DNA of 37,585 bases from a virus (Duplodnaviria; Heunggongvirae; Uroviricota; Caudoviricetes). Made by a program: the position numbers and the translations under genes. The notes under the pieces are model-generated. The model saw nothing but the letters and a program-made list of their open reading frames with translations. It made no database searches and was not told where the DNA came from. Positions within the stretch are counted from its first letter, which is position 1. Each line of letters starts with the position of its first letter. Of the stretch, positions 12,278 to 36,450 are shown piece by piece. Location: the IMG/VR virus record IMGVR_UViG_2675903368_000016; one strand, 5' to 3'.

Positions 12278-12279
12278 TT

Positions 12280-17298: not shown

Positions 17299-17316
17299 TG
17301 TATCAGTGCTGATACA
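17299..17316. promoter_or_regulatory. Candidate Ogr-dependent late promoter element (TGT-N12-ACA) for the V operon
   Basis: TGTatcagtgctgatACA, a near-perfect palindrome about 50 bp upstream of the V start, between S and V. Confidence 0.5.
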
Positions 17317-17320
17317 AAAA

Positions 17321-17767: not shown

Positions 17768-18212
17768 GTTTCACCGTCCACATTTCTTCAGGTTCATCAG
17801 GTTCCGCTACCGCTTCAACGTTCGACACACTGCCGTCAGTGCTGACTAGCACACGCTCCGTCAGTTGCAGGTTAAGGCTGATATCACAGACATCGTTGCG
17901 CAGAATATCCACCTCAAAGGTGAATAGCTTTTCCCGTAACGCCGGGTTATTGATGGCATCGGGCTGGTTATCCCGCAGCCACAGCAAAACCGGGGCCATC
18001 AGCAGATTCTGGTCGCCGCTGAAATCCTCAATCACCACGTTCAGGGTGTAGCGGTACTCCCATGACATGGAGCTGGCCCCCGTGGCAACCAGCGAACCGT
18101 TATCCACAAACAGATGCAGTTTGTCCGGGTTATTGCGGACATAAGGCACCGCTTTATTGAGGGCGTGGCGCAGGGATTGTGGTTTGTTCACTGTTTCGCT
18201 CCTGACACGCAA
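17760..18212 (-). CDS. R: Tail completion protein gpR
   Basis: 150-aa ORF downstream of the lysis genes; P2 order lysB-R-S. Confidence 0.75.
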   Translation of the reverse strand: MRVRSETVNKPQSLRHALNKAVPYVRNNPDKLHLFVDNGSLVATGASSMSWEYRYTLNVVIEDFSGDQNLLMAPVLLWLRDNQPDAINNPALREKLFTFEVDILRNDVCDISLNLQLTERVLVSTDGSVSNVEAVAEPDEPEEMWTVKRG

Positions 18213-18444
18213 TAATCATGTCCACTTTGTCTGCACAGACCGCCCAGGCGGCCTCCGTTTCATCCAGCAATGCGTTCAGATCACCGTTAGTGCGCGGCGC
18301 TGTCTGATCCAGCCGACACGGCGTCACTCGCGGACAACCACTGACGGTAAGCTGCACCTCCGGTGAGTGCCGGACGTTCCCGCAGCCGGATAATGTCAGC
18401 AGGCAAAGGAGTATCAGCCCAGCGGCGTAAATCCTCGTTCTCAC
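18154..18444 (-). CDS. lysC: LysC, o-spanin (Rz1-like lipoprotein) embedded in lysB and extending into R
   Basis: Alternative frame inside lysB with signal peptide and lipobox (LLCLLTLSGC); Pro-rich C-terminus. Confidence 0.65.
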   Translation of the reverse strand: MRTRIYAAGLILLCLLTLSGCGNVRHSPEVQLTVSGCPRVTPCRLDQTAPRTNGDLNALLDETEAAWAVCADKVDMIIACQERNSEQTTIPAPRPQ

Positions 18445-18715
18445 GTTTCAGTTCCTCGATCCGGCGTTGTCGTTGTCTCAGCTGTGCGCTGGTCTGTTCT
18501 GCTTCGGCATAGAGCCGCGCCTGCTCCCGGTTATTGGTTTCAGTCAGAATGGACAGGCTGATAAGCTGGCTGTTGCTCTTTGCCAGTGCCTGGCTTTTGC
18601 TCTGCAGCTCGTTTGCCTGCGTGCTGATGGTCTGGCTGGCATCAGCCAGCCGCCACGTCTGCCAGCCCAGCGCCGCCAGTAATAACGCCAGCACAACCAG
18701 CAGCAACCGGTTCAT
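18287..18715 (-). CDS. lysB: LysB, i-spanin (Rz-like)
   Basis: 142-aa ORF with N-terminal transmembrane anchor (LLLVVLALLLAALGW) and coiled-coil periplasmic part. Confidence 0.75.
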   Translation of the reverse strand: MNRLLLVVLALLLAALGWQTWRLADASQTISTQANELQSKSQALAKSNSQLISLSILTETNNREQARLYAEAEQTSAQLRQRQRRIEELKRENEDLRRWADTPLPADIIRLRERPALTGGAAYRQWLSASDAVSAGSDSAAH

Positions 18716-19089
18716 GCTGCTACCTGTTGCGCCATCTGATTACGGGTGATCCAGAAGGCAATAACGGTCAGCAGATAAAAGACCAGGGTAATAGCCCACC
18801 CCGTCCATGCGAGACTTACAACAATCAGCAATCGCATCACCCAACAGATAAATACATTTTCTTTTCGGGTAATTGTCTTCAGCAAAGATGTCCTTAACTC
18901 CTGCCAGAGCGGGCCATTCTGAATTAACGCAGCCAGTGCTACCGGAATTACCGCCCATGTCAGCAAACAGGCTACCCAAACGCCGGACGCTGCCAGTACC
19001 GGAAAGATCCCCTGCGGATACACCATTGCTGCGATTAACAGCGCCATCCATAACATCAGAAACAGTCCGCTGATTAATTTCTTTTTCAT
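18712..19089 (-). CDS. lysA: LysA, lysis-timing membrane protein
   Basis: Multi-TM small protein after the endolysin; start moved to internal MKKKLISGLF..., which overlaps the K stop. Confidence 0.65.
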   Translation of the reverse strand: MKKKLISGLFLMLWMALLIAAMVYPQGIFPVLAASGVWVACLLTWAVIPVALAALIQNGPLWQELRTSLLKTITRKENVFICWVMRLLIVVSLAWTGWAITLVFYLLTVIAFWITRNQMAQQVAA

Positions 19090-19090
19090 T

Positions 19091-19603
19091 TCAGTTTGCT
19101 CCCTGTAAACACCAGGCCATCTCCCGCGCACGGCGGTTATCCAGCCCCTGATTAAACACACCTTTTACATAAACCCAGCGCGGCAACTGTCGGCACGCAT
19201 CCGCCCAGCGCCGCTGATTGAGCAATTTCACCAGCGTGGAACTACAGGCATTGCCCGTCCCCACGTTGAAGGCAAACGACACCGTAGCGTCATACACCTT
19301 CTGTGGTGGCTGTTGCTTCACACACCTTTCCAGTGCCCGCTCCACACGCAGCACGTTGGAGATCAGCCCTTCTGCTGCCTGTCGTTCCGTGATTGTTTTG
19401 CCGGGAATGACGCCCGACGTATTACCAATGCCGTCGGTCCAGACACCCGCGCTGCACTGATACGGCTGCAGACGACAACCTTCGTAATCGGCAATCAGTT
19501 TCAGCCCTTCCACGGAGGTGTGAAGCTGCTGAAAACCCGGCAGCGTGGCAGCAATAGCCAGCACGGCCCCGACAAGGCAGCGTTTAACGATTGATGGATT
19601 CAT
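19091..19603 (-). CDS. K: Endolysin gpK (lysozyme) with signal-anchor-like N-terminus
   Basis: 170-aa ORF MNPSIVKRCLVGAVLAIAATLPGF... between holin and lysA. Confidence 0.75.
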   Translation of the reverse strand: MNPSIVKRCLVGAVLAIAATLPGFQQLHTSVEGLKLIADYEGCRLQPYQCSAGVWTDGIGNTSGVIPGKTITERQAAEGLISNVLRVERALERCVKQQPPQKVYDATVSFAFNVGTGNACSSTLVKLLNQRRWADACRQLPRWVYVKGVFNQGLDNRRAREMAWCLQGAN

Positions 19604-19799
19604 AGTCCTCCCGCGAGATCTGCCCGTCGCGCAGAAGCTGGTAGGCTTTGTGTTTGTAGTACCAGTTGATAGCCAGCATCAGCACACCAATCATCAGGCC
19701 GCCCAGCGTTGAGGCATCCTTGATGGACAAATCGCCCAGCCAGGCCAGCACAACGGCGATGCAGTACGTGATAAAGGCGCTGATTCGCTCAAGCGTCAT
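19584..19799 (-). CDS. Y: Holin gpY
   Basis: 71-aa ORF with two hydrophobic helices and a charged C-terminus, immediately upstream of the endolysin. Confidence 0.7.
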   Translation of the reverse strand: MTLERISAFITYCIAVVLAWLGDLSIKDASTLGGLMIGVLMLAINWYYKHKAYQLLRDGQISREDYESINR

Positions 19800-19802
19800 A
19801 AT

Positions 19803-20006
19803 TCAGTCCCATAGCTGGACGGTCTGCACGGTGGTGGTGGCCGGAATGTCCGGCAGCTCCACCTGCAGCCCGTGAGGTAAAAAGGGGCCATATTCGGCAA
19901 GCCCCGGATTTGCCTTCAGTACCTGCTCCGTGACACCCTGCGTGCGCCCGTAATGACGCCAGCAAAGCGCGTCCACCGTGTCATACTGATGCGCACGCAC
20001 TTTCAT
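19803..20006 (-). CDS. X: Tail protein gpX
   Basis: 67-aa ORF between L and the holin; P2 X is also 67 aa. Confidence 0.75.
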   Translation of the reverse strand: MKVRAHQYDTVDALCWRHYGRTQGVTEQVLKANPGLAEYGPFLPHGLQVELPDIPATTTVQTVQLWD

Positions 20007-20533
20007 CAGATAAGCTCCACTGTACAGTGCGGCGCATCCTGCACCCGGCTGATGGCCCAGCGGGCGTCACGCCACAAATCACCGCTGGATTCCGCCAGTT
20101 CCTCGCCTCGCTTCACACCGGATGCCGTGGCGTCATAGTCCTGGTATCGTTCGTTGAGCATGGCGCGTGCCCAGCAGTAAACCGCGTTGAAATAGTGCTG
20201 AATGCGCTCACTTTTCCCGTCCAGCTGTTCTGCCGGAACCTCTGCCAGCGAGGCATACCCCAGCATCTGCTGGCGTCTGCGAAACTCATACAGCTCTGCG
20301 TTGACCTCCGAAATTGCCGACAGCGCAACCTGCTTTAAACGCGGCTGCGTCACCGTGCCGTCAGTGCGCATCACGCTGCGAAACTCCGACAGGTCCACAT
20401 CAGGCCAGAACGGTGTATTTCTGATGATTTCCGCCTGTTCCGGTGCCTGTTCTGGCGCAACAAACTTCATGCTGCTTTCTCCTGAAATAGAGGGCGGTGG
20501 ACGGAGTTTTGATGTGGCTGTGCCTTTCGCCAC
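20006..20533 (-). CDS. L: Head completion protein gpL
   Basis: 175-aa ORF downstream of M; true start may be the internal MKFVAPEQ. Confidence 0.75.
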   Translation of the reverse strand: MAKGTATSKLRPPPSISGESSMKFVAPEQAPEQAEIIRNTPFWPDVDLSEFRSVMRTDGTVTQPRLKQVALSAISEVNAELYEFRRRQQMLGYASLAEVPAEQLDGKSERIQHYFNAVYCWARAMLNERYQDYDATASGVKRGEELAESSGDLWRDARWAISRVQDAPHCTVELI

Positions 20534-20565
20534 CCCGTGCCGCCCGTGCGCGGGGGCACGTTCTG

Positions 20566-21216
20566 TCAGCGGCTGTCATTGCGCAGTCTGCGCTCCAGCT
20601 GCTGTTTGTCTTTTTTCACGCCACAGCGGGGATCGAGCTGCAACGCATGGTTGAGATGGTTAAGGGCGGAAGCCGGATTGCTTTCACTCAGGACAGCGCC
20701 AATCGCTTTATGCAGACGCGCCCGTGACTGGTCCGGCATATCCAGACCGTCTGTCAGCTCCAGCGTCTGCAGCAACAGATCGGCATCAAAGCCGGTGGCG
20801 GCAAGCATTGCGCTCTGCGCCGCGTCTGCCATTTCCTCTGCCAGCACGGTCTGCACATTGCGGTTACCCAGTGGCATCACCCAGCCATGACGCAGGGCAT
20901 GACATCCGATCTCCAGCGCCCCGGCATAATCTCCGGCATCAATGCGCCACAGCATCACGTACATCAGCACGTCATCCTGTTGAGTGCCTCCGGCAGCCAG
21001 GACGCCCTCTGCCCAGGCGGCGTACTTCGGCAGCAGCTCCACCTTGATTTCCGCTTTTTTGACCGTGGACTGAACACCCTTGAGACGGCGGCGGTCTTCC
21101 GCCAGTTGCAGCAGCATCAGGTCATAGCCCGACGCGTGGAGAACACTGCCGCCCTCGCGGGCGGCCTGTTCAGCCTGAACGCGCAGGCGATGCTGCCGTG
21201 CGGGACTCAGGCTCAT
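20566..21216 (-). CDS. M: Terminase small (endonuclease) subunit gpM
   Basis: 216-aa ORF downstream of N; P2 order O-N-M-L. Confidence 0.75.
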   Translation of the reverse strand: MSLSPARQHRLRVQAEQAAREGGSVLHASGYDLMLLQLAEDRRRLKGVQSTVKKAEIKVELLPKYAAWAEGVLAAGGTQQDDVLMYVMLWRIDAGDYAGALEIGCHALRHGWVMPLGNRNVQTVLAEEMADAAQSAMLAATGFDADLLLQTLELTDGLDMPDQSRARLHKAIGAVLSESNPASALNHLNHALQLDPRCGVKKDKQQLERRLRNDSR

Positions 21217-21219
21217 GGA

Positions 21220-22277
21220 TTACGCTCCGGTTTCTGCTGCGGCGGCGCTGAAGTCGCCAATCTGGATGTTTTCCACAAGTGCGGCACAGCGGTAGTCCTC
21301 AACCACATAGGCTTCGTTAACGGATTCAAAGTTTTCAATCCGGTCACGTTTCGGGTTGTCGATAACTGAACGGCGGCGGGTGTCTTCCTGCCAGTAGATG
21401 GACAGGTTATCCAGACGGGTGATCAGCAGTGCATTCGGCGGGAAGAACGGTGCACGCACGGCCTGCAGGCCACCCATGCGTTTCTGACTGATGATCATAT
21501 CGGCAGCCAGTTTTTCACTGTTTTCCTGCTCTTTGTTAACCAGCGGGAAATACTTGTCAGACAGCAGTTCACGCCCGCAAATCACCACCAGATCGTCATC
21601 GTCCTGGTAGACCACGTCGATAAGCTCATTGACGGCATCCATCACCACGGCGTCCAGGTTGGCATATTCGCCACCTTTACCGACTTTCACCGCGCCCGGT
21701 GTGGTTTCACCGCCCATGGTGGTGCTGCCCATGACGTGATCCGGTGCTCCTCACGGATTTTCTGCAGCCAGCCTTTGTTCACATCCTGCAGCAGCGGGTT
21801 TTCGCTGCGGTTGGAGGTTTTCGCACGCTTCACGCCGTTAAAGCCGATCATGATGCGGTCCAGTGCCTGACGTTTCACGATGGCGTCACGGATACGCACC
21901 TGGAAATCCTGAAACTTCGCCCACAGGTCCAGCTTCGCGTAGGTCAGTACCGTGTCAAAGTTGGTCTGCTCGCATTTGTATTCCACATCGACCATCAGCG
22001 TAGGATCGACAGGTTCACGCTCTTTCGCGGTGGTGTCAGTGGTTCCGGCAATGGTGCTACCAACACCCAACCCCAGCAGCTGACCGGACTGCTCAGTCAC
22101 TGGCGTGACGTTAATCAGCGTCAGGAAAGCGGCGGACTGCTGGATCTGGTCTTCCAGCGTCTGCTGTACAGACGGCTCCACGGTGAACTTGCTGGACAGT
22201 TCTTCAACTGCCACACCGTTCAGACGCGCCAGCTGCTGCAGGTAAGCGTTAAAAGCAAAGCGGGTATTCTTCTTCAT
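21220..22277 (-). pseudogene. N: Major capsid protein gpN, interrupted by a 1-bp frameshift
   Basis: Two overlapping ORFs (21687-22277 and 21220-21732) together span gpN; the frame breaks at ...LQKIREEH|, and adding one C restores ...EEHPDHVMGSTTMGGETTPGAVKVGKGG.... Confidence 0.8.
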
Positions 22278-22293
22278 CAGGTTTTGTGCTCCA

Positions 22294-23127
22294 TCAGCAA
22301 TTGGTCAGAGTGTCAGCGGGGGCGTTACCGCCTGTTGCACGCTGGCGGTAGTCCTGGCGGCTGTCTTCATGACTCAGCTTATTCACCAGTTCGTTAAAGG
22401 CGGTCTGCTGTGCCTGCAGGGCAGTCTCCAGCTCAGACAGACGTTCTTCCTGCTCAGACAGGGATTTTTCGGTGCGTGCGCTCAGGTTTTGCTGCTCAGT
22501 GGCGACCAACTCCACGGCCTTATGCACATCAGAGAACCGGGCATCGTCGGACTGCTCTTTTTTGGTGAACAGTGCCGTGACGCGGGCAAACAGGGACGGC
22601 TTGTCCTCCTGGATTTCTTCCAGTTCGATCACCGTTTCCTCTGCGGCGGTAAAGAGATTGGCGGGATTCTGCTTGCGGTTTGCCAGCGGGTTATGGGCTG
22701 CACTGGCGCTGAATGTCAGCATTTCAGTGCCCAGACTGGCAGGGTCATCAGTGGCAGCCAGGCCGACCAAGTAGGCTTTGCCCGTATCAGCAAACTTCGG
22801 ACTGACTTCCATAGATGTGAATAATTTCTGGCCTTTTTTCACCAGTTCCACCAGGGATTCCGTTGGCTCAACGTCGGCATACAGCGCCATCTTGCCTGCC
22901 AACGGACCTTCCGTGATTTCTTCAGCAAACAGCGCCGTCACCTTGCCGTAGCGGTTAAAGGTGCTGTCCGGCAGATAAGACTTGATGTGCTCAAGGTTAA
23001 TCAGCGCGGTATACACCGCCGGGTTGTAGCTGGCTGCCATCTGTTCCAGCCATTCACGCTGGATTTCGCGTCCGTCGGTGGTGGCACCTTCCACCCCGAT
23101 GCGAAAACGCTTTGCTTTCACTGTCAT
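22294..23127 (-). CDS. O: Capsid scaffolding protein gpO
   Basis: 277-aa ORF divergent from P; coiled-coil-rich C-terminal part. Confidence 0.8.
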   Translation of the reverse strand: MTVKAKRFRIGVEGATTDGREIQREWLEQMAASYNPAVYTALINLEHIKSYLPDSTFNRYGKVTALFAEEITEGPLAGKMALYADVEPTESLVELVKKGQKLFTSMEVSPKFADTGKAYLVGLAATDDPASLGTEMLTFSASAAHNPLANRKQNPANLFTAAEETVIELEEIQEDKPSLFARVTALFTKKEQSDDARFSDVHKAVELVATEQQNLSARTEKSLSEQEERLSELETALQAQQTAFNELVNKLSHEDSRQDYRQRATGGNAPADTLTNC

Positions 23128-23205
23128 GAGCCGTGCTCCGTTAGAAAAAACTTACTGGAGCCTTATGGTTGCGGTGATGGGGGCAGTGAAACAATGCGCG
23201 GTATT

Positions 23206-23223
23206 TGTACCGACAACCACACA
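23206..23223. promoter_or_regulatory. Candidate Ogr-dependent late promoter element (TGT-N12-ACA) in the divergent O/P intergenic region
   Basis: TGTaccgacaaccacACA, same dyad type as upstream of FI and V. Confidence 0.5.
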
Positions 23224-23269
23224 AACCGCAGGCGGGGAAAGCCTTCATTCAAGGCTGTAGGTTTGTGCC

Positions 23270-25036
23270 ATGAACACCACACTGACACCCGCAGATCTCG
23301 ATCCCCGTCGGCAGGCCATGCTGCTGTACTTTCAGGGATACCGCGTCGCCCGCATTGCTGAAATGCTGGGCGAGAAAGTTGCAACTGTTCACAGCTGGAA
23401 AAAACGCGACAAGTGGGGTGACTATGGGCCGCTGGATCAGATGCAGCTCACCACCGCCGCACGCTACTGCCAGCTCATTATGAAGGAGCACAAAGAAGGG
23501 AAAGATTTCAAAGAGATTGACCTGCTGGCGCGCCAGTCGGAGCGCCACGCGCGGATCGGCAAGTTTAACAATGGCGGCAACGAAGCCGATTTAAACCCTA
23601 ACGTCGCCAACCGCAACAAAGGCCCACGCCGTCAGCCGGAAAAGAATGTTTTCACCGATGAACAGATTGAGAAGCTGGAAGAAATCTTCCATTCCTCCAT
23701 GTTCAACTACCAGCGCCACTGGTGGGAAGCCGGAAAAACCAACCGCATCCGCAACCTGCTGAAGTCACGCCAGATCGGCGCAACCTTCTATTTTGCCCGT
23801 GAAGCCCTGATTGACGCCCTGCTGACCGGACGTAACCAGATTTTCCTTTCCGCCAGCAAGGCACAGGCCCACGTCTTTAAGCAGTACATCTTCGACTTCG
23901 CCAAAGAAGTGGAGGTGGAGCTGAAAGGTGATCCGATGGTGCTTCCTAACGGTGCCACGCTTTACTTCCTCGGCACCAATGCCCGCACTGCCCAGAGTTA
24001 TCACGGCAACCTGTATCTGGATGAATATTTCTGGATACCGAAATTTCAGGAGCTGCGTAAAGTGGCTTCCGGTATGGCTATTCACAAAAAATGGCGACAA
24101 ACCTATTTTTCCACGCCATCAAGCCTGACCCACAGTGCTTATCCGTTCTGGTCCGGTGCGCTGTTCAACCGTGGACGCAACAAAGCCGACAAGGTGGACA
24201 TCGACCTGTCCCACAGCAATCTGGCCCCCGGCCTGCTGTGCGCAGACGGGCAATACCGCCAGATAGTCACCGTGGAAGATGCGGTGCGCGGCGGCTGCAA
24301 CCTGTTCGACCTTGACCAGTTGCGCATGGAGTACAGCCCGGACGAATACCAGAACCTGCTGATGTGCGAGTTTGTGGACGATCTCGCGTCCGTGTTTCCG
24401 CTCAGCGAGCTGCAGGCGTGCATGGTGGACAGTTGGGAAGTCTGGACCGACTTTCATGCACTGGCCCTTCGCCCGTTTGGGTGGCGCGAAGTGTGGATCG
24501 GTTATGACCCGGCAAAAGGTACGCAGAACGGCGACAGCGCCGGATGCGTGGTGGTGGCACCGCCAGCCGTGCCGGGCGGTAAGTTCCGTATTCTTGAGCG
24601 CCACCAGTGGCGCGGGATGGACTTCCGCGCCCAGGCGGACGCCATCAAAAAACTGACCGAACAGTACAACGTGACATATATCGGCATCGACTCGACGGGT
24701 GTCGGTCACGGGGTTTACGAGAACGTGAAAGCGTTTTTTCCTGCCGTCCGGGAGTTTGTCTACAACCCCAACGTTAAAAATGCCCTGGTACTCAAGGCAT
24801 ACGACATTATCAGCCACCGCCGTCTGGAGTTTGACGCCGGGCACACCGACATTGCGCAGTCATTCATGGCAATCCGTCGCGCCACCACCGCCAGTGGCAA
24901 CCGCCCGACCTATGAAGCCAGCCGCAGCGAAGAAGCCAGCCACGCCGATCTGGCCTGGGCAACGATGCACGCACTGTTTAATGAACCGCTGCAGGGCGAG
25001 TCCGCCAATACAAGCAATATTGTGGAGATTTTTTGA
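23270..25036 (+). CDS. P: Terminase large (ATPase) subunit gpP
   Basis: 588-aa ORF divergent from O. Confidence 0.85.
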   Translation: MNTTLTPADLDPRRQAMLLYFQGYRVARIAEMLGEKVATVHSWKKRDKWGDYGPLDQMQLTTAARYCQLIMKEHKEGKDFKEIDLLARQSERHARIGKFNNGGNEADLNPNVANRNKGPRRQPEKNVFTDEQIEKLEEIFHSSMFNYQRHWWEAGKTNRIRNLLKSRQIGATFYFAREALIDALLTGRNQIFLSASKAQAHVFKQYIFDFAKEVEVELKGDPMVLPNGATLYFLGTNARTAQSYHGNLYLDEYFWIPKFQELRKVASGMAIHKKWRQTYFSTPSSLTHSAYPFWSGALFNRGRNKADKVDIDLSHSNLAPGLLCADGQYRQIVTVEDAVRGGCNLFDLDQLRMEYSPDEYQNLLMCEFVDDLASVFPLSELQACMVDSWEVWTDFHALALRPFGWREVWIGYDPAKGTQNGDSAGCVVVAPPAVPGGKFRILERHQWRGMDFRAQADAIKKLTEQYNVTYIGIDSTGVGHGVYENVKAFFPAVREFVYNPNVKNALVLKAYDIISHRRLEFDAGHTDIAQSFMAIRRATTASGNRPTYEASRSEEASHADLAWATMHALFNEPLQGESANTSNIVEIF

Positions 25037-26082
25037 TGGGAAAGAGTAAGAAAAACCGCGCTGCGGCGATGAATCACATCCAGCATAAAAGCCAGACTTC
25101 AGCCGAAGCATTCAGCTTCGGCGATCCCGTTCCTGTTCTGGACCGCCGAGAATTACTGGACTATGTGGAATGCGTACAGATGGACCGTTGGTATGAGCCG
25201 CCCGTCAGCTTTGACGGACTGGCGCGCACCTTCCGCGCCGCCGTGCATCACAGTTCCCCGATTGCAGTAAAGTGCAACATTCTGACCAGTACCTATATCC
25301 CTCATCCGCTGCTCAGCCAGCAGGCTTTTTCGCGTTTTGTGCAGGACTATCTGGTATTTGGTAACGCCTACCTGGAGAAACGCACGAACCGCTTCGGTGA
25401 AGTTATCGCCCTTGAACCGACCCTGGCAAAATACACCCGACGCGGATTAGACCTGGATACCTACTGGTTTGTGCAATACGGCATGACTACGCAGCCGTAT
25501 CAGTTCACGAAAGGCAGCATTTTTCATCTGATGGAACCGGACATCAACCAGGAGATCTACGGCCTGCCCGGTTATCTTTCTGCCATTCCGTCAGCCCTGC
25601 TCAACGAGTCCGCCACGCTGTTCCGCCGCAAGTATTACATTAACGGCAGTCATGCAGGCTTCATCATGTACATGACCGATGCAGCGCAGAACCAGGAGGA
25701 TGTGAACAACCTCCGCAATGCGATGAAAAGCGCCAAAGGTCCTGGTAACTTCCGTAACCTGTTTATGTACTCGCCTAACGGTAAAAAGGACGGGCTTCAG
25801 ATTATCCCGTTGTCAGAAGTGGTGGCGAAGGATGAGTTCCTGAATATCAAGAACGTGAGCCGGGACGACATGATGGCGGCGCATCGTGTGCCGCCACAAA
25901 TGATGGGGATAATGCCTAATAATGTCGGGGGGTTTGGGGATGTAGAAAAGGCAAGCCGTGTCTTTGTCCGCAACGAGTTGATACCTCTGCAGAAACGCCT
26001 ACAGGAACTTAACAACTGGCTGGGCGATGAAGTTATACGTTTCGAGCCGTACACTTTAGATATTCAGAATGAAAAGAAATAA
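25033..26082 (+). CDS. Q: Portal protein gpQ
   Basis: 349-aa ORF overlapping the P stop by 4 nt; P2 order P then Q toward cos. Confidence 0.85.
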   Translation: MMGKSKKNRAAAMNHIQHKSQTSAEAFSFGDPVPVLDRRELLDYVECVQMDRWYEPPVSFDGLARTFRAAVHHSSPIAVKCNILTSTYIPHPLLSQQAFSRFVQDYLVFGNAYLEKRTNRFGEVIALEPTLAKYTRRGLDLDTYWFVQYGMTTQPYQFTKGSIFHLMEPDINQEIYGLPGYLSAIPSALLNESATLFRRKYYINGSHAGFIMYMTDAAQNQEDVNNLRNAMKSAKGPGNFRNLFMYSPNGKKDGLQIIPLSEVVAKDEFLNIKNVSRDDMMAAHRVPPQMMGIMPNNVGGFGDVEKASRVFVRNELIPLQKRLQELNNWLGDEVIRFEPYTLDIQNEKK

Positions 26083-26110
26083 AAGTTAGCGAATAAAAAT
26101 CATTAGCATA

Positions 26111-26131
26111 GGCCGCAAACTGAGCGGCCTT
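26111..26131. terminator. Bidirectional hairpin terminator between Q and the convergent accessory operon
   Basis: Stem AGGCCGC / GCGGCCT with loop AAACTGA; T-rich tracts on both sides. Confidence 0.45.
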
Positions 26132-26136
26132 ATTCA

Positions 26137-26406
26137 TTACCAATTTCTTTTTTCGGAGTTTAGCCAATCACCGCATGGATAATATCTTGACGCCCATTCA
26201 CCTTGTAAACGAGCTACAAACAGAATATCGTTACTATCGACCCTGGCTTGGAGTCCGTCACGCAGTTGAGTTGCGGTCAGCGTTGTATCTACTAACCAAA
26301 ATGATTCAAGATATTTACAGTATGTAAATTGCTTTAGATAGTCAAAAACTTCATCGTAGTTTCTTCCCGGAGCCTTCAAGTCATAGGTTATACAATAAAT
26401 AGCCAT
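26137..26406 (-). CDS. Hypothetical 89-aa protein, accessory cassette gene 4
   Basis: ORF MAIYCITYDLKAPGRNYDEVFDYLKQF...; AT-rich; 4-nt gap to the upstream gene; no confident family assignment. Confidence 0.55.
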   Translation of the reverse strand: MAIYCITYDLKAPGRNYDEVFDYLKQFTYCKYLESFWLVDTTLTATQLRDGLQARVDSNDILFVARLQGEWASRYYPCGDWLNSEKRNW

Positions 26407-26409
26407 TCT

Positions 26410-26655
26410 CTAAGCTCCGCATTTTTTATCATTTGGGGAACATCTTAACCTGCGACATTTGCGGCAATACGATTGAGGGATCAGCCGCTCTCCTTCCATA
26501 GTTCTAAAACCAAACACTTCTTCAATTTTGTTCAAATCACCACTTGCAATAACCCCACAGCAGGGGCAGACAGCCTCAATTTGAAATGCCATGTCTATCT
26601 CCATTCCACATGTTGAATGTAGGGTAATACTTCCTTTCAAGCAAAAATGAGACAA
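26410..26655 (-). CDS. Small zinc-ribbon protein, accessory cassette gene 3
   Basis: C-P-C-C-G ... C-R-K-C-R-R...C...C cysteine pattern; probable true start at internal MAFQIEAV (about 60 aa). Confidence 0.5.
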   Translation of the reverse strand: MSHFCLKGSITLHSTCGMEIDMAFQIEAVCPCCGVIASGDLNKIEEVFGFRTMEGERLIPQSYCRKCRRLRCSPNDKKCGA

Positions 26656-26827
26656 GGATCTTGAAACCTAATTTAAACTTGCTTGCGCGCGCTCGTATCC
26701 CCGCCACGCCTGCCCGCTTTATGTAGTAGTTTTCATGCAGGTGCATGATCTACGCGAAAGCCCGCCAGTTCTGGCGGGCCCTAGCAAAAACGATCCTCAA
26801 ACGATCATGCGATCTCATGCAGCATAG

Positions 26828-27559
26828 TCATGCACGATCATTTGACTCAGCATCTGCTGCACGCTTGCTGCGCGAAGATGCACTTTTACTATCAATCTTT
26901 CGACAGTTCTTTCTATCCCTGGCTTCATTTTCTTTAAATTTGTTATATGTCTCAGTATCAAAAAACGAAATTGTTTCAACCTCATCTTTTGGTATGAGCA
27001 CACGGAAATCTTCGATATTAAGCCGAGACATTCCACTTATCACACCACTATCAAGATAATGTTGGTGATAGTTAGTCGTGATACTAATCGTTAGATCATC
27101 TTTATCCCGATATCCGCTTAACATCGGGAGAAGTTCAAGGTGCTCTGAAAGCCCGTTTTCTAACGCCGGACAAGTAACAAGACCAACATAGATTTTGCGA
27201 GACGACAGAGTTGCTATGATCGGAAACTGTCTTGCGGACGCTTCCATGAGTAATGATTCGAAAGCGTTATTACCCACAGCTTTAGCTAAGGCATCCCAGC
27301 GACGATCTCCACGTGATGTGCGTAACTTATTTCCAAAACCTGAAATCGCAGCGAGGACAATTGAAATCATAACCCATGCTATCTGTTTGATTTCATTTAT
27401 TCTTTGAAGTTTGTCTTTCGATGAAGACAACATGCCATTAAAACTGTCAGGTGTTAGATTCAAGGCATTAGCCAGCCAACGAAACCCTCCGCTGACGTTC
27501 AAAATAAAGGTGAAAAAACCGCCAAGGAGAAAAAAAAACGATACCCCAGGCAGCCACAA
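26828..27559 (-). CDS. Membrane protein of unknown function, accessory cassette gene 2 (distal frame)
   Basis: 243-aa ORF with hydrophobic segments (FFFLLGGFFTFIL; IAWVMISIVLAAISGF) and a charged C-terminal domain; no ATG at the reported start. Confidence 0.55.
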   Translation of the reverse strand: MWLPGVSFFFLLGGFFTFILNVSGGFRWLANALNLTPDSFNGMLSSSKDKLQRINEIKQIAWVMISIVLAAISGFGNKLRTSRGDRRWDALAKAVGNNAFESLLMEASARQFPIIATLSSRKIYVGLVTCPALENGLSEHLELLPMLSGYRDKDDLTISITTNYHQHYLDSGVISGMSRLNIEDFRVLIPKDEVETISFFDTETYNKFKENEARDRKNCRKIDSKSASSRSKRAADAESNDRA

Positions 27560-27671
27560 AAAAATAAGCGTCCCAGCCGTTGGAACGCTTATATCGGTAT
27601 CTTGTTGAAAGTGATAGGTTTACATAAATAAAACCACTAACCAAAATCACTGCTAAAAGTAATGTTGCCAT
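27468..27671 (-). CDS. N-terminal transmembrane segment ORF, probably the 5' part of the same membrane-protein gene in another frame
   Basis: 67-aa ORF MATLLLAVILVSGFIYVNL...; its ATG overlaps the stop of the upstream 71-aa gene (TAATG); joins the 243-aa frame at a T7/T9 homopolymer region. Confidence 0.45.
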   Translation of the reverse strand: MATLLLAVILVSGFIYVNLSLSTRYRYKRSNGWDAYFFVAAWGIVFFSPWRFFHLYFERQRRVSLAG

Positions 27672-27886
27672 TATCTGGTTCTATTAGTTTTCTCTTTTAC
27701 AGTGCTCGTTTTGATGCCTTCAAGCTTATCCATCTGTGCCTTGATGGCATCCATTGCTCTTTTGTTAGACAAGTCTACGGACACAAAACCATCTTTACTA
27801 AGATTGAGTTTGTCCTGGTTCTCTTTAAGAACCCTTGCCAGACGTTCAACTGGGTTACCCAGGCTAAATGCGGCGATGCTTGACAT
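27671..27886 (-). CDS. Hypothetical 71-aa protein, accessory cassette gene 1
   Basis: ORF MSSIAAFSLGNPVERLARVLKENQDKLNL...; first gene of the leftward AT-rich operon. Confidence 0.5.
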   Translation of the reverse strand: MSSIAAFSLGNPVERLARVLKENQDKLNLSKDGFVSVDLSNKRAMDAIKAQMDKLEGIKTSTVKEKTNRTR

Positions 27887-28156
27887 AACTCCCCCTTTTC
27901 ACATGGCGCGGAAGTCTACACTCCGACGCCTACAACCTCAACAGATTATCTTTAAAATTTAGACAACAATATCATCTGTTGATTGCGTTACTTAAACTTA
28001 AGTTCAATGCGCTCGATCATGCAAGCTGTTTCTTAAGAACTGTTAATTTCCTGGCATATATAGTGGTTAAGGTAACAAATTGACACTAACGCCTCGCATA
28101 GCTCGTTGTTCAACCTTGCTGACGCCAGAAGCAAGTTCAGACGCCAGCAACGTTTC

Positions 28157-28390
28157 TTAATGCAGCCAGCTGTCGTCTTCCCACACCTTCTGCATAATTT
28201 TCATCACTTGTTTTCTTTCTTCGTCCAGTTGCAATCCGGTCAGTTCCACACCGTTAGAGCTACCTTTGCGGATACGAATTACCGTTTTGGGATACAGAGG
28301 ACGCAGATTGCGGTAAAGCTCGGATTCAAGGGCGTCCAGGGTAGACTGGCTAATCTTCTGCTCTTTATCGATCATTATTTCAATGCGCAT
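28157..28390 (-). CDS. DinI-family protein (186 Tum-like SOS-inducible anti-repressor module)
   Basis: 77-aa ORF MRIEIMIDKEQKISQSTLDALESELYRNL...KIMQKVWEDDSWLH resembles E. coli DinI along its length; downstream of a LexA box. Confidence 0.75.
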   Translation of the reverse strand: MRIEIMIDKEQKISQSTLDALESELYRNLRPLYPKTVIRIRKGSSNGVELTGLQLDEERKQVMKIMQKVWEDDSWLH

Positions 28391-28401
28391 AAAAAGTCAC
28401 C

Positions 28402-28590
28402 TCAACTGATGACATCCATTGAGCGGTTGTATTCGTGGGTTCTGATTTTTGCCATGAGTTCATCTGTTAGTTCAGAAACCCACTGCAAAGCCAGCCCCTT
28501 CTCTTCATCACTACACTCACTAGCCGCTACAAGCTTAAGAAAAAAATCAATGCGCTGGAGCTTCAAAGACTCCAAAAAATAGTCCTGCAT
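28402..28590 (-). CDS. Small protein co-transcribed with the DinI-like gene (possible Tum N-terminal module)
   Basis: 62-aa ORF starting 42 nt downstream of the LexA box and ending 11 nt before the DinI-like gene. Confidence 0.5.
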   Translation of the reverse strand: MQDYFLESLKLQRIDFFLKLVAASECSDEEKGLALQWVSELTDELMAKIRTHEYNRSMDVIS

Positions 28591-28631
28591 CTTTCCTCCT
28601 ATGACACCAAAGCAATACTGTAAATATAACC

Positions 28632-28650
28632 ACTGTTTATATTTACAGTA
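28632..28650. promoter_or_regulatory. LexA operator (SOS box)
   Basis: aCTGTttatatttACAGta matches CTGT-N8-ACAG with an AT-rich spacer; a second CTGT half-site sits at 28617-28620. Confidence 0.75.
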
Positions 28651-28741
28651 TATAATAATCTTACTGATGTAAAACGTTTTTTACGTTCATCAGCCTGATA
28701 TGCCTGGTATTATTAAGAGCACGAATTGTTAACCCGCGTAA

Positions 28742-31156
28742 TTAATACAGGTTTCGCCACTTATCATCTTCCTGCAAACGCTGGTTCCGATAGAAGATAC
28801 GCAGGCCTGCTCCTGACGGAATACTGCCGCCGCGAAGGAGTAAATCGACCTCTTTCTCGCTACCATCAAATCCTCTGGACTTCAGCTCATAGACGAGCTG
28901 CTGTCGCTGATGGTCTGTAATTCGCTGTTTGTAGTCTTTACGCCGTTTCGGTTTAACCAGGCGTAACCTTGCTGCCAGTTCCCGGCGCTCTTTTTTGCTC
29001 ATACTGTGCAGGTAATCGTGCAACTGCTTGTCATCCATGCGGGTAATGTCCGTTCTGGTGCCCCCATCAGCTGATTTATCTTTCTCCTGTTGGTTCAAAT
29101 TTTCAGCAAGGGGACAGTTATTGCCACGAGTCCAAGGGGCGCAAGCGCCCTGGTCGGCTGCCGCCTCCTGAACGTCAACGGCTTTACGAACCATTTTCCA
29201 CTTCACTGCATGAGTGCAGATCTTGCCCTCTGCAATGGGTGACCAGATGCCATAAATACGAATGCCGTGATCGCCATAGGCGGTCGGCTCTTCGTTGATT
29301 TCATAAGCGGTTCTGATGAGGTGATATTTACGGGGAACCAGTACGCCGCCCTGCTTCATGATGTAGGTGGCAAAACAACCAGCATCAGCAGCAGCCAGAA
29401 TGGCATCAAGACGCGGGTTATCCAGTACCGGCGCACCTGCTTTTTTGTCACCCTGTTGCCTTGCCGCCTGACCAGCCAGCAAGCGAAGTTCACGGTAAGC
29501 CTGACGCCCCGGAATACCAAAGAAGCGGAATTGCTGAACACGATGCAGAGACGCCCAGGCATTCACGTATTCAGCGTTATCACGCAGAGATTTACCCGTT
29601 TCCTTGCTGATCTCGCCAGCCAGACCACGACCGTCAATGTTCTTACTGATATATTTCGCGATGTAGCTTGTCGGCGTTCCTTTGCGCGGGTTAATCAACT
29701 CAGACTTAAAGCGCGGCCCAGTGTTATTGCCCAGCTCCTCGCGGTCTTCACGGATGGCAAACTTACGCAGTAATGCAGTGATGGCACGGCGGTCTTTTTT
29801 GCGCATGAAACACAACAGGTGCCAGTGAACTGTGCCATCATGATGCGGCTCAGCCACCCGCACGCCATACCAGCGCAACCCGGCTTTGTGCATCGCCTTA
29901 CGAAATGCAGCAAACATGCCGACCAGATAATCGCTGCTTTGTCTTACCGTCGCGTTTGTCCAGGTCGGGTTTGGTCTGCCGTTATTTAGCGTGGAATGGA
30001 AACGCGACGGACAGGTGATAGTGTAGAAAACGGCGCAGTCACCGCGCATTTCCGCGATAAGCTCCAGACCTTTAACACAGGCCATCATCTCATTGCGGCG
30101 ATGCGCAGGGTTGCTGCTGCTGGCGTTTACCACATCCTCCATGTCCAGCGTGTCGCCGTCTTCGTTCACCAGTTCATGAGAACGGAAAAACTCCAGCGAC
30201 TTACGGCGCTGCTCACGTTTATGCATCACGGCTTCATAGCTGACATAAGGAGATGCTTTTTTGCTGACCAGGCAAACAGCGCGCAACTGCTCTTCCCGCC
30301 ATTCGCAACGCATCTTCCATAATTTCCGATACCACCAGTCGGCGCACAACATACGCGCCAGCGAACCCGGAATGAGTTCATAGGGCACGGGTTTACGGCG
30401 GTTTCTTTTCCGACGGAGTTGCTCAAACGCAGGTGGGATGACATCCAGACGCAGGGTTTCCGCTGCCACCTTTTCCCATGTCTTGCGGATTTCTTCTGGC
30501 TTAACGTCATCGGTGGCATACAAATCACCACAAGCTGCATCAAGGCACATACTCATATGCGCAGCTACCAGGGTGGACAGGCGTTTCACCTGATCCTGAC
30601 TCATTTCAGGCAGGATCAGCAGGCCGTCCAGCCCTTCATGGCTTGCCATAAAGCGAAAAGATGCAGATAGCTGACTGTCGCGTACATGCTCCAGTCGTTC
30701 CAGACATGGCTTAATCGTCTCACGTAAATAGCGGGAATAAGCCTTTGGCCTGCCCAGGCTGCTGAAGTATTCAATACGTTGCATCAGCGGCTTGCTGATA
30801 TGGGAAGGCTGGGCGTTGACGTCCGCCAGAATGACCATGTCTGAATTAAAACGCTGCTGCTCATGCGCCAGCTTTGCCCGGCTAATGAGCTTATCCTGCT
30901 CCATTTCGCGCTGGACAGGATCACGTGATTCATTAAAGAAATAACGCTCCCAGACCTGATCACTCAGTGCCTCGCGGCGCAACTGTTCCTGCTCGTTATC
31001 GGCAGCGTACAGAGTGATCAGGTTTGAAAGCGTAGAAACCGGCGCAACTTCCGCCGGGTCCAGATAAGGGTTAATGGCCTTTTTCGGGCTGTTCCATGAG
31101 AATGCTGCGGCAGCCTCGTTAAAGCCGCAGCAGTTGTTCATATCGGCATGACTCAT
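28742..31156 (-). CDS. A: Replication initiation protein gpA (rolling-circle nickase)
   Basis: 804-aa ORF at the end of the early operon; size and position fit P2/186 A. Confidence 0.8.
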
Positions 31157-32010
31157 GCACGTACTTCGTACACGGCAGAACTATCCACGCCACGCGAATA
31201 ATCAAATCCCATCCAGCAGCGCGGCCCGGAAACAGCAATGATTTCTGTTGCTGATTTACCCTCGCCAGCTGCCACACCGATGCTGCGTTTTACCTTGATA
31301 TAGTGGTGAGTAAAATTGCGATACAGCGAACGGATCAGGGATGTGTCACTGTTAGAAACAATGACCGGATGTCCTTCTGATGACCGATGTTCAAGAACGG
31401 ATGCCAGGTGATACTGGTCATCTTCAGTGAAACCATCAGTGTGATAGCCGGAAAACACACCGTCATATGGCGGATCGCAATACACCACATCTCCCGCCTT
31501 CAACATCGCCAGCGTTTCATCAAAGCTGGCGCAGATAAACGTTGCTCGCTGGGCTTTTTCTGCAAATGTGCGAAGTTCTTTTTCAGGGAAATACGGATTT
31601 TTATAATTACCGTAGGGAATGTTGAAATGCCCGCTCTTGTTATAGCGACATAAACCACGGTAACCGTGACGATTGAGATACAGGAAATATACCGCTTTCA
31701 TGAAATCAGTAATTTCAGTTGAGCAGTTAAACTCCTGCCTTATGTTGTAATAAGCCACCTCCCTGTTTGCGATCTCAAATAAAACTCTGGCGCGAGATAT
31801 AAACGATTCACAATCAGCGGCAACCTTTTTATAGAGGTTGATTAAATCAGGATTAATATCCGCAACCAGATAGCTGGGATAATCCGTTTCCATCATCACA
31901 GCACAGGAACCCGCGAAAGGTTCAACCAGTCGCGGGCCAGCAGGAAGGTATTTTTTCAGTTCTGGCATAATGGCGGTTTTATTTCCCGCCCATTTCAGGA
32001 TGGTGCTCAT
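31153..32010 (-). CDS. DNA adenine methyltransferase (Dam family)
   Basis: [11 protein letters not shown] (AdoMet-binding region) and DPPY catalytic motif; start at the internal Met overlaps the upstream stop. Confidence 0.8.
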
Positions 32011-32234
32011 ACAGCACCTCCGTTGTAATGTTTGCCTTTCAGTTCTGCGATTTCCTGACAGGTAATGCAAAGCTGCACTCCCGGAATGGCGCGGCGTCGT
32101 GCTGGCGGAATTGGCGCTTCACATTCAATGCAAAGTACGCGTGACACGCCCGGTGATTTGGCACGGGCTGCACGGATATGGCGCTGGCGTTCTTCTTCAA
32201 CGCGCTGCTGTACGAGATCCATTGCATCAGCCAT
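32007..32234 (-). CDS. TraR/DksA-family C4 zinc-finger protein
   Basis: 75-aa ORF with C-x2-C ... C-x2-C (CIECEA...CITCQ). Confidence 0.7.
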   Translation of the reverse strand: MADAMDLVQQRVEEERQRHIRAARAKSPGVSRVLCIECEAPIPPARRRAIPGVQLCITCQEIAELKGKHYNGGAV

Positions 32235-34156: not shown

Positions 34157-34753
34157 ATGTCAACATCAAAGTACCCAAGTGAGATCAAAATAAATCCCAA
34201 TAAAGGTGGTAAGGCTGCGATTGAGCGATTAGTCGAAGCCTATGGCTTTACGACACGACAGGCTTTAGCTGATCACTTGGAAGTATCAAAAAGCACACTA
34301 GCGAACAGGTATTTGCGGGATACATTTCCTGCTGACTGGATAATCCAATGTGCTCTTGAAACAGGAACCTCCCTCAAATGGTTAACTACCGGACAAGGCC
34401 TTAAGCAAAGCTCGCTGACAGCAGCTACAGAAGAGCTTGTTAAGTTTCGCCTTGCCGCAGGCAAAATGATTGAAGACGGTTCATATGTCTTCGATTCATC
34501 ATTTCTTCCTGCAAACCTTTCATCACCAATTGTTGTTCAGGATGGACTCGTCACATACATTTGTGATCAAAAATTTTCTGAAGTACTTGATGGAAACTGG
34601 TTAATCAATATCGACGGAACCTATTCCATTCGAAAAATCACAAGGCTTCCTAAAGGAATGATTAAAATTACAACGGCAGAGAATAGCTTTGAATGTGCAT
34701 TTTCTGATATTGAAGTGGTTGCTTGTATAAGAAGTACAATAGTCTCGAATTAA
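34157..34753 (+). CDS. cI: CI-type immunity repressor
   Basis: 198-aa ORF with N-terminal HTH (TTRQALADHLEVSKSTLANR), divergent from apl and upstream of int. Confidence 0.7.
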   Translation: MSTSKYPSEIKINPNKGGKAAIERLVEAYGFTTRQALADHLEVSKSTLANRYLRDTFPADWIIQCALETGTSLKWLTTGQGLKQSSLTAATEELVKFRLAAGKMIEDGSYVFDSSFLPANLSSPIVVQDGLVTYICDQKFSEVLDGNWLINIDGTYSIRKITRLPKGMIKITTAENSFECAFSDIEVVACIRSTIVSN

Positions 34754-34773: not shown

Positions 34774-36450
34774 ATGAATTCATTTGCCATCGTTATACTC
34801 TTATTAGCATTTCTCGCCCCTGTTCTAGCTGTAATATTATTTAAACAAAGTAAAAAACACAAAGCGGCTATAGATAACCTGACAGCTAACAACATAGCCC
34901 TTTCTAACCAACTGATTGAAAATCAAGAAAAACTAGCACAGACCGTACGAGAATTATCAGAGCTTGAAGGGCGAGCAGCACCATTGTGGCAATACGAAGA
35001 ATTGCACAGCGCAGTAATGGATGCAGAGAATAAGATAAAAAATGCGGACTCAATAGCCAAGCAAAAAATAGATGAAGCCCAAATTAAGGCGGCTAAAACA
35101 GTAAACGAAGCAAATTATCAAGCTCAGATGACAATAAGCAACGCTAATAGCGAAGCTATAGCAATCACCAAAGACGCTCGCGATGCACGCCTGAAAGCCA
35201 AAGAACGTCTTGATAATGCTAATAATAAAGCAAATGAGCTAATCTCAAATGCTAATGACAATGCAGTAAAAATTATTTCTGATGCAGAAGAAAGAGCAAA
35301 GGAGATTGCTGGTTCAGCATATGAAGCTAAAGAGTTTGCAGAAAAATATGAAGCAGTTGCAAAATCAATGAAAAATAAAATTGAAGGTTATGGTGATGAA
35401 TGGATCATCCCTAACCGTAGTGTACTTGATGAGCTGGCAGAAAATTATGAATTTACAGATGCAGGCAAGGAATTACAAAAAGCCAGAGAGTTAACCAAAT
35501 CATTAATAAAAACTAATAAAGCTGCTTCGTGTGATTATGTTGAGCAAAACAGGCGTAATACTGCCATAAACTTTGTTTTGGATGCCTTCAATGGAAGAGT
35601 TGACAGTATTTTATCAAAAGTCAAACACAACAATTTTGGAAAACTTTCCCAAGAAATAAAAGATGCATTTCAACTAGTAAATTACAATGGCTCTGCCTTT
35701 AGGTCCGCAAAAATAAGTGACATCTATCTTCAGGCAAGACTCAACGAGCTAAAATGGGGTGTAGCAGTTAATGAAATTATGCTCGAAGAAAAAGAAGAGC
35801 AAAGAAGGATTAAAGAACAGCTTCGTGAAGAGGAAAGAGCTCGTAGAGAATATGAAAAAGCGATAAAAGAAGCTGAAAAAGAAGAAAAAGCTATTCAGCA
35901 AGCTATAAATAAAGCAACGAAAGAACTTATGCTTGCAAATGAAGAACAACGCTTAGCTTTAGAGCAAAAAATAGCTGAACTACAGTTAAAATATGAAGAA
36001 GCTGAAGCTAAAAATCAACGAGCTATTTCTATGGCTCAACAAACCAGATCAGGCCACGTCTATATCATTAGTAATATTGGTTCATTTGGCGAAGATGTAT
36101 ATAAAATTGGAATGACACGCCGCCTTGAACCACTTGATCGTGTTCGTGAACTCGGAGATGCTAGTGTTCCTTTTTCGTTCGATGTTCATGCGATGATTTA
36201 TAGTGATGATGCACCATCATTAGAAAACCATCTGCATAAAGTTTTCAACGAAAAGCAGGTCAATAAAATTAACTCACGAAAAGAGTTTTTTAACGTAAAT
36301 TTAAAAGAAATCAAATCAGTTATTGAAGACATGAACATCAACGCCCACTGGACAATGTTTGCAGAGGCGAAAGAATATAGAGAGTCTCTAGCTATTGAGC
36401 AGGAGCGCAAAGCAGCCACTTCCGCCAACGATGAACTACATGTTGCTTAG
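34774..36450 (+). CDS. Membrane-anchored coiled-coil protein with C-terminal GIY-YIG-like (T5orf172-type) domain; lysogeny-operon moron
   Basis: 558 aa: N-terminal TM helix, long coiled coil rich in A/E/K/N, C-terminal GHVYIISN...YKIGMTRRLEPLDRVRELG...; AT-rich; 20 nt after the cI stop. Confidence 0.7.
   Translation: MNSFAIVILLLAFLAPVLAVILFKQSKKHKAAIDNLTANNIALSNQLIENQEKLAQTVRELSELEGRAAPLWQYEELHSAVMDAENKIKNADSIAKQKIDEAQIKAAKTVNEANYQAQMTISNANSEAIAITKDARDARLKAKERLDNANNKANELISNANDNAVKIISDAEERAKEIAGSAYEAKEFAEKYEAVAKSMKNKIEGYGDEWIIPNRSVLDELAENYEFTDAGKELQKARELTKSLIKTNKAASCDYVEQNRRNTAINFVLDAFNGRVDSILSKVKHNNFGKLSQEIKDAFQLVNYNGSAFRSAKISDIYLQARLNELKWGVAVNEIMLEEKEEQRRIKEQLREEERARREYEKAIKEAEKEEKAIQQAINKATKELMLANEEQRLALEQKIAELQLKYEEAEAKNQRAISMAQQTRSGHVYIISNIGSFGEDVYKIGMTRRLEPLDRVRELGDASVPFSFDVHAMIYSDDAPSLENHLHKVFNEKQVNKINSRKEFFNVNLKEIKSVIEDMNINAHWTMFAEAKEYRESLAIEQERKAATSANDELHVA

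Follow-up and report, generated by a model that had tools for sequence, protein, structure and literature searches.

Between gpA and gpQ, phages related to P2 carry variable, often antiviral cargo, including tin/old, in a hotspot adjacent to the cohesive-end site (cos) (Rousset et al. 2022, PMC9122126). VapD, a small protein with which part of the cargo described here can be compared, occurs both stand-alone and paired (PMC11980593). We analyzed a stretch of viral DNA of 37,585 nucleotides (nt) (IMG/VR record IMGVR_UViG_2675903368_000016; hereafter the window) with respect to the interval 26137-27886, which sits inside the gpA-gpQ region. An initial annotation had described its four minus-strand open reading frames (ORFs) as one leftward operon, that is, as a single candidate cassette for defence, exclusion or toxin-antitoxin activity at the position of P2 tin/old. 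Hotspot position and accessory, AT-rich and uncharacterised nature of the genes were borne out by our analysis. The single operon was not: we are highly confident that, in its anatomy, the interval is composed of two accessory cassettes of two genes each, which are independent of one another and flank cos within the hotspot. The right cassette encodes a small soluble protein and a membrane protein, the left one a zinc-ribbon protein and a Cas2-like protein. The features of the interval are:

27671-27886, minus strand: gene for a soluble protein of 71 amino acids (aa), first of the right cassette (phrog_9843, E=1.4e-36)
26828-27671, minus strand: gene for an inner-membrane protein of ~280 aa, predicted to consist of three transmembrane (TM) helices, an Sm-like barrel and a C-terminal helix; frameshifted here
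27530-27538, minus strand: T9 homopolymer, site of the +1 frameshift; T8 in the intact copy of E. coli 210221272
~26683-26836, no strand assigned: conserved cos block, the putative P2-like terminase recognition and cleavage region (G+C 0.558; repeated TGCATGA motifs)
26760-26780, minus strand: G+C-rich hairpin of the cos block, GGCCCGCCAG-A-CTGGCGGGC and then TTT, found in the sequence and conserved in five phages
26692-26710, minus strand: predicted 19-nt cohesive end GGCGTGGCGGGGATACGAG, 14/19 positions as in annotated P2 cosL
26410-26592, minus strand: gene for a zinc-ribbon protein of 60 aa, first of the left cassette (phrog_19700, E=6e-42)
26137-26406, minus strand: gene for an 89-aa protein, a predicted stand-alone member of the Cas2/VapD superfamily

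Two gene pairs on either side of a predicted cos region

All four ORFs are present as first listed, and their low G+C content was confirmed: it amounts to 0.40-0.43 in 500-nt steps along the interval; the gene pairs have 0.405 and 0.411, the structural genes at 14000-25000 have 0.567. The tight packing ascribed to the group as a whole applies within each pair, where the stop codon of the 71-aa gene overlaps the start of the membrane gene (TAATG) and the Cas2-like gene starts 3 nt after the zinc-ribbon stop codon. It does not apply between the pairs, which are separated by a gap of 235 nt from the stop of the membrane gene (26828) to the start of the zinc-ribbon gene (26592).

This gap contains a G+C-rich island within the otherwise AT-rich interval. 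In megablast searches against phage genomes, ~150 bp at 26683-26836 are 90-92% identical to Fels-2, RE2010, a Yersinia phage and dozens of P2-like phages of Klebsiella and E. coli. The DNA flanking the block is unrelated on both sides among the matching phages, and the block itself is usually unannotated. In an alignment of five phages it is near-invariant, including the hairpin and the repeated TGCATGA motifs. The sequence GGCGTGGCGGGGATACGAG is invariant in the same alignment and agrees with the annotated P2 cosL GGCGAGGCGGGGAAAGCAC at 14 of 19 positions, in the same orientation relative to Q. A cohesive end and a conserved block next to Q are the marks of a P2/186-type cos, and their presence argues strongly that the gap contains the cos region of the phage; the exact nick positions are placed as in P2 by analogy. 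The hairpin inside the block was not called by the terminator scan because its T-run is short. It may terminate rightward transcription weakly, serve as a terminase element, or both.

The two pairs also differ in their distribution. The right part comprises cos, the membrane gene, the 71-aa gene and the DinI flank; ~50 E. coli genomes contain prophages that agree with it at 99.9% identity, and the alignment with the prophage of E. coli 210221272 ends 8 nt past the cohesive-end sequence. For the left part, with the zinc-ribbon and 89-aa genes, the match is to Klebsiella phage ST512-KPC3phi13.6 (84%), and of 5426 complete E. coli genomes only 8 contained the left pair. The two parts are joined in no complete E. 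coli genome; 52 carry the right pair and 8 the left one. Where the right pair is present, the genes between cos and Q are different ones, for a hypothetical protein of 557 aa, a SEFIR protein and SieB (SieB is listed in Table S5A of Rousset et al.). Where the left pair is present, other genes lie between DinI and cos, namely those for a DUF6694 lipoprotein and a protein of 141 aa and a GAPS4-like cluster of three genes. In all 11 IMG/VR P2-like loci that carry it, the left pair lies at a fixed distance from cos, and across cos from it are at least five different cargoes, with nothing there in three loci. In linear virion DNA, the two pairs are located at opposite ends of the genome.

These separate distributions, together with the position of cos between the pairs, leave a four-gene operon unsupported. 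A single defence, exclusion or toxin-antitoxin cassette could be proposed from four ORFs on the same strand, similarly AT-rich and located in a hotspot, and the weak T-tail of the cos hairpin makes readthrough in the prophage conceivable. But the cos block and its hairpin interrupt the series between genes 2 and 3, the homology breakpoint is at cos, each half is combined with many other cargoes or none, and the halves, which end up apart in virion DNA, are inherited separately by co-occurrence as well. We therefore give hardly any credence to the single-operon explanation. Its placement at the tin/old position needs the same division. The cos-Q interval of P2 contains the Q terminator only and no cargo; therefore, only the 71-aa/membrane pair, between A and cos, occupies the position of tin/old, but not the zinc-ribbon/Cas2-like pair between cos and Q.

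The window as a whole is a segment of an E. coli chromosome carrying a P2-like (Peduoviridae) prophage; over the first 2.7 kb (ybjM-ybjL), its identity to E. coli genomes is 100%. As initially placed, the interval lies between an SOS-type module with a 62-aa ORF and a DinI-like gene and the terminator behind Q. The neighbouring features are:

23270-25036, plus strand: terminase gene P
25033-26082, plus strand: portal gene Q
26110-26130, bidirectional: terminator-like hairpin common to the convergent Q and Cas2-like genes, from the terminator scan and the sequence
28157-28390, minus strand: DinI-like gene (DinI is the sole family assigned to the product of a neighbour)
28402-28590, minus strand: 62-aa ORF
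28742-31156, minus strand: replication gene A

Neither cassette showed a convincing promoter in a sigma-70 scan, which returned no more hits than shuffled sequences. An Rfam scan of 25800-28900 gave no RNA family, and the predicted fold of the intergenic region between the DinI-like and 71-aa genes is not significantly more stable than shuffled sequences (z = -1.4). Upstream of the 62-aa ORF and the DinI-like gene are a LexA-box-like sequence TACTGTAAATATAAACAGT (CTG-N10-CAG; 28632-28650, minus strand) and, behind it, a second near-box. This suggests an SOS-controlled, tum-like induction module comparable to that of phage 186.

Three further regions of the prophage were recorded. Between the CI repressor (34157-34753) and integrase (36533-37585) genes, an AT-rich island (G+C 0.34-0.38) represents a second cargo slot; it contains a gene (34774-36450, plus strand) whose product of 558 aa has DUF4041 and T5orf172/MUG113 (GIY-YIG-like) domains. 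A serine resolvase/invertase gene (12700-13443, plus strand), near 10739-11865, adjoins tail-collar and tail-fibre-assembly genes, and close to it ORFs overlap on both strands (11834-12301); the region looks like an invertible tail-fibre segment for host-range switching. Immediately upstream of gene A and overlapping its start is a gene for a D12-class N6-adenine DNA methyltransferase (31153-32070, minus strand), for which an anti-restriction or self-marking function in the prophage is possible.

The 71-aa protein and its membrane partner

The membrane gene had been listed as encoding a multi-TM protein. It is indeed present, but split in this copy by one extra T in a T-run: the ORF 27468-27671 corresponds to positions 1-47 of phrog_3630 and the ORF 26828-27559 to positions 45-273. 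Over ~1 kb, T9 versus T8 is the single difference between the window and E. coli 210221272, in which the intact gene has 843 nt. In 50 E. coli genomes at >=99% identity, the copies of the membrane gene align one base shorter, with two protein annotations, which indicates that these near-identical copies are intact. An IMG/VR contig identical to the window (L019) has the same split. The gene in this copy is thus either a recent pseudogene or affected by a homopolymer sequencing error. We also considered programmed frameshifting or phase variation at the T-run, but rejected it, since the other near-identical E. coli matches are one base shorter, consistent with T8.

The intact 280-aa protein has hydropathy peaks at residues 1-23, 34-63 and 94-112 and basic cytoplasmic loops. 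An AlphaFold2 model built with 44 homologues (mean predicted local distance difference test score, pLDDT, 78) begins with three long helices, followed by two short helices, a small barrel of five or six strands (~150-236) and a long C-terminal helix. With its N-terminal helix and strongly bent five-stranded barrel, the downstream domain is predicted to be Sm/Hfq/LSm-like and cytoplasmic. A fold search of BFVD with this model yielded weak Sm-like matches only. The protein belongs to no Pfam, NCBIfam or PADLOC family, and all 57 clusters of homologues are labelled 'hypothetical'.

The order of three TM helices and then a cytoplasmic Sm-like barrel would also fit a protein that does not sense and kill but instead blocks DNA entry or alters the envelope, for example an MscS-like channel in a module for superinfection exclusion or membrane physiology. 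Prophage-encoded inner-membrane proteins are classic superinfection exclusion factors, and a Pectobacterium chromosome keeps only DinI and the gene pair (see below), suggesting a benefit for the host. For an MscS-type channel in particular, the membrane protein has neither an MS_channel sequence signature nor a structural match to MscS. We consider this exclusion or channel explanation of the right cassette rather unlikely.

The 71-aa and 280-aa proteins (WP_000094764 and WP_021556032) are listed in Table S5A of the hotspot study as 'hypothetical + hypothetical', with varying partners (PMC9122126). In five other places, a homologous ORF of 55-72 aa directly precedes the homologue of the membrane gene: in Klebsiella phage ST15-OXA48phi14.1, in Salmonella phage SEN5 (36% and 48% identity), in Pseudoalteromonas phage C5a (25%, elsewhere in the genome), at the border of a Shewanella prophage, and in a Pectobacterium chromosomal remnant with DinI and the pair only (L052/L053, 3372-4819). 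The two genes thus remain adjacent at 25-48% identity. Their dN/dS values (ratios of nonsynonymous to synonymous substitution rates) are 0.03 for the membrane gene and ~0.2 for the 71-aa gene. Taken together, conserved adjacency and selection point to a genuine, selected two-gene module. The Pectobacterium remnant lies between an MscK-like gene and a transporter gene of the major facilitator superfamily, with no other phage genes within 4 kb, and looks as if a P2-like right end had been domesticated and only this part of it remained.

The zinc ribbon and the stand-alone Cas2-like protein

The 60-aa protein contains a CPCC...CRKC motif and three further cysteines. Its gene truly starts at 26592, with a GGAG Shine-Dalgarno sequence 7 nt upstream. 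Compared to six P2-like loci, dN/dS is 0.005-0.08 at a proportion of synonymous differences (pS) of up to 0.65, and the Shine-Dalgarno sequence is conserved. It is a small gene under very strong purifying selection that has been missed in public annotation; the annotation pipeline PGAP (RefSeq) omits the ORF in E. coli S56 (L047) and RM10466 (L048), at ~4810-5000. The Shine-Dalgarno sequence of the following Cas2-like gene lies within the end of the zinc-ribbon gene, and this coupling, with a spacer of 3-5 nt, is conserved in all 11 P2-like loci.

The 89-aa protein does not match the Pfam Cas2 family (PF09827) at E<=1, and single-sequence and profile searches of the PDB sequences gave nothing meaningful and no Cas2. 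The PADLOC models for Cas2b and Cas2 detected it weakly (E=5e-4 and E=3e-3). A profile search of 1.84 billion representatives recovered 4174 clusters, defined at 50% identity, at E<=1e-3, almost all of them of ~90 aa. Among the 137 closest relatives, 50 match PF09827 at E<=0.01 (best 1.7e-9). The family therefore appears to be a divergent stand-alone branch of the Cas2 superfamily, and the 89-aa protein is predicted to adopt the ferredoxin-like Cas2/VapD fold. Its motifs are TYDLxxPG, SxW and VDxND. Within them, D9 (TYDL) and S35 (SxW) are nearly invariant in the family; for D9, conservation is complete in a set of 13 sequences and at least 90% in one of 137. The catalytic Asp and Ser of VapD are D11 and S46 (PMC11980593), and the catalytic residues of BPSL1038 are D11...SST (PMC10491678). 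Based on fold position and these reports rather than on a residue-level superposition, D9 and S35 would correspond to these catalytic residues. The dN/dS of the gene is 0.09-0.2.

Neither cas1 nor any other cas gene is present among the called or annotated neighbours in the window or in ~40 related loci, in which CRISPR arrays were not explicitly searched for. A Cas2 fold also allows for counter-defence, in that the protein, with or without the zinc ribbon, could act as a Cas2 mimic that poisons Cas1-Cas2 of the host or otherwise hinders spacer acquisition, to the protection of the phage or prophage. This explanation seems improbable to us.

The Cas2-like gene lacks the zinc-ribbon partner in 20 IMG/VR loci and in metagenome loci. 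Its distant homologues are solitary, oppositely oriented morons, several of them beside cI/cro switches, and one is found directly after cos in another P2-like phage. In marine metagenome contigs (L006-L009, 1-4270), a 64%-identical gene lies in a bacterial island that also carries Thoeris-like SIR2/STALD and ThsB-TIR genes and a gene for a Tae4 amidase effector.

Conversely, solo copies of the zinc-ribbon gene (77-80% identity) have a P4-family integrase gene on one side and an AIPR gene or a GAPS4-like cluster on the other; these integrase islands contain neither cos nor a Cas2-like gene. A homologue of 52% identity precedes an unrelated acidic protein of 100 aa. We had considered that the zinc-ribbon gene is tied to cos, which is ruled out by the island copies L056, L058 and L060 without cos sequence. 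A role of the zinc-ribbon protein as the dedicated antitoxin of the Cas2-like protein is weakened, although not refuted, by the solo occurrences. Coupling of the two genes is conserved within P2-like phages and non-obligatory across either family.

The GAPS4-like cluster encodes a 333-aa PDDEXK_GAPS4 protein and proteins of ~360 aa and ~225 aa, and is divergent to the zinc-ribbon gene in two unrelated settings: across cos in P2-like phages of Klebsiella, and beside a P4-family integrase gene at smpB without cos (L002, 3843-6593; L021, L022 and L024; L058, 545-3298; L060). Between these settings, the three proteins are 75%, 56% and 44% identical and the zinc-ribbon protein 80%. The zinc-ribbon gene may be a recombination anchor for the cluster or its functional partner.

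The genes of both cassettes might also be decaying or functionless hitch-hikers of a recombination-prone cos region, with a fortuitous adjacency of the zinc-ribbon and Cas2-like genes. The frameshift in the membrane gene, the separate occurrence of zinc-ribbon and Cas2-like genes elsewhere and the lack of a PGAP annotation for the zinc-ribbon ORF would agree with this explanation. It is opposed by the strong purifying selection on all four genes, the intact membrane gene in ~50 E. coli genomes, the conservation of the small/membrane pair at low identity and the zinc-ribbon/Cas2-like coupling, which was kept with its Shine-Dalgarno sequence and short spacer throughout the P2-like loci. We therefore judge hitch-hiking to be quite improbable.

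Possible roles and comparison with known systems

We propose that both cassettes are morons expressed from the prophage and used in conflicts with other mobile elements, a role that is plausible from the hotspot context. In the right cassette, the Sm-like domain would oligomerise the membrane protein into a ring, predicted to be a hexamer or heptamer, at the inner membrane, which could serve as a sensor of nucleic acids or ligands. As the effector, the TM bundle would cause abortive infection or exclude entry, and the 71-aa protein would regulate the membrane protein. In the left cassette, the Cas2-like protein would be a small nuclease, and its zinc-ribbon partner would bind nucleic acids and govern its activity or target, as VapX does for VapD. 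We put forward each of these functional assignments, sensor and effector on the right and nuclease and partner on the left, only tentatively, as possible rather than probable. For comparison, the prior for antiviral activity of any such cargo at the gpA-gpQ hotspot is roughly one third.

Several observations weigh against this proposal. The frameshift in the membrane gene could be a sequencing error. Readthrough transcription across cos in the prophage is conceivable because the hairpin tail has only three T. A strict toxin-antitoxin relation of the zinc-ribbon and Cas2-like genes is weakened by the occurrence of each gene alone. Moreover, PADLOC-DB v2, Pfam and NCBIfam contain no defence or family match beyond the weak one to Cas2. 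As a whole, two cassettes flanking cos with a role in conflict remain the best explanation, which we rate a little better than even.

Another way to read the same genes is that the solitary Cas2-like family is a new single-gene factor in phage conflict, acting either in nuclease-based immunity or abortive infection or as a Cas2 mimic blocking CRISPR adaptation, to which the zinc ribbon was recruited in P2-like phages, and that the small protein/3TM-Sm pair is a new membrane exclusion or abortive infection system. If so, cos would lie between distinct cargo slots whose contents are swapped by recombination in the cos block common to both. We regard this combination as possible, though doubtful.

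The statement that none of the products belongs to a nameable family was only partly upheld. Neither PADLOC nor Pfam nor NCBIfam gave a match linking the products to P2 tin or old; in the PADLOC-DB v2.0.0 scan, the three proteins other than the 89-aa one had no match; and the PHROGs of the products are families of 'unknown function' only. However, folds could be assigned to two of them, a Cas2 fold to the 89-aa protein and an Sm-like domain to the membrane protein. None of the four protein sequences is among the systems cloned or tested in the supplements of Rousset et al., and terms that might describe the products were not found in a 2026 survey preprint on P2/P4.

Three results are new: the interval resolves into two slots, one on each side of cos, and the breakpoint is at cos itself; folds could be assigned; and a very large family of stand-alone Cas2-fold proteins was recognised. 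The division of the interval has practical consequences, since a clone of the "four-gene cassette" would test two modules that are unrelated to each other, and one of the two is broken in this copy. Two uncharacterised but selected gene sets are flagged instead, namely the stand-alone Cas2-fold family, common in temperate phages, and the small-protein/TM-Sm pair. Both are cheap to assay for anti-phage or anti-CRISPR activity. If either proved active, it would be a new minimal system, and interference of the Cas2-like protein with adaptation, if true, would be a new kind of counter-defence.

A prophage inner-membrane protein in a defence hotspot resembles lambda RexB, P22 SieA/SieB and the TM effectors of CBASS- or Thoeris-like systems, and its cytoplasmic small beta-barrel is of a class that binds nucleic acids or ligands, as in the Sm/WYL-type sensors BrxR and DriD. 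However, none of these proteins shows sequence similarity to the membrane protein described here. The fusion of three TM helices to an Sm-like barrel, with its dedicated partner of 55-72 aa, is not a described system.

The 89-aa protein differs from Cas2 of CRISPR systems in having no cas1 or cas neighbours and in belonging to a distinct large family with motifs of its own. It shares with VapD (VapX) and BPSL1038 the Cas2/VapD fold of ~90 aa and the conserved Asp (at the end of beta1) and Ser, and with VapXD the small, translationally coupled upstream gene. In contrast to VapXD, the partner is a Cys-rich zinc ribbon and not VapX, VapW or VapY, and it is also found alone beside other defence genes, so that the partnership is not obligate. 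Since VapD itself is known from both states, and the Cas2-like family likewise occurs paired and stand-alone, a VapXD-like arrangement is nevertheless the best analogy, although partner family and obligate pairing do not agree.

The type of locus is already known. As in the P2 hotspot, AT-rich and swappable cargo lies between A and Q next to cos, but it has no homology to tin, old or the systems validated in PMC9122126. It is uncharacterised and otherwise ordinary-looking hotspot cargo, made up of two modules, one of which is disrupted here. While A-Q was treated as one hotspot in that study, cos divides it here into two independently exchanged sub-loci, and a hotspot of two cargo slots with the breakpoint at cos is relevant to the way in which P2-like phages exchange their cargo.

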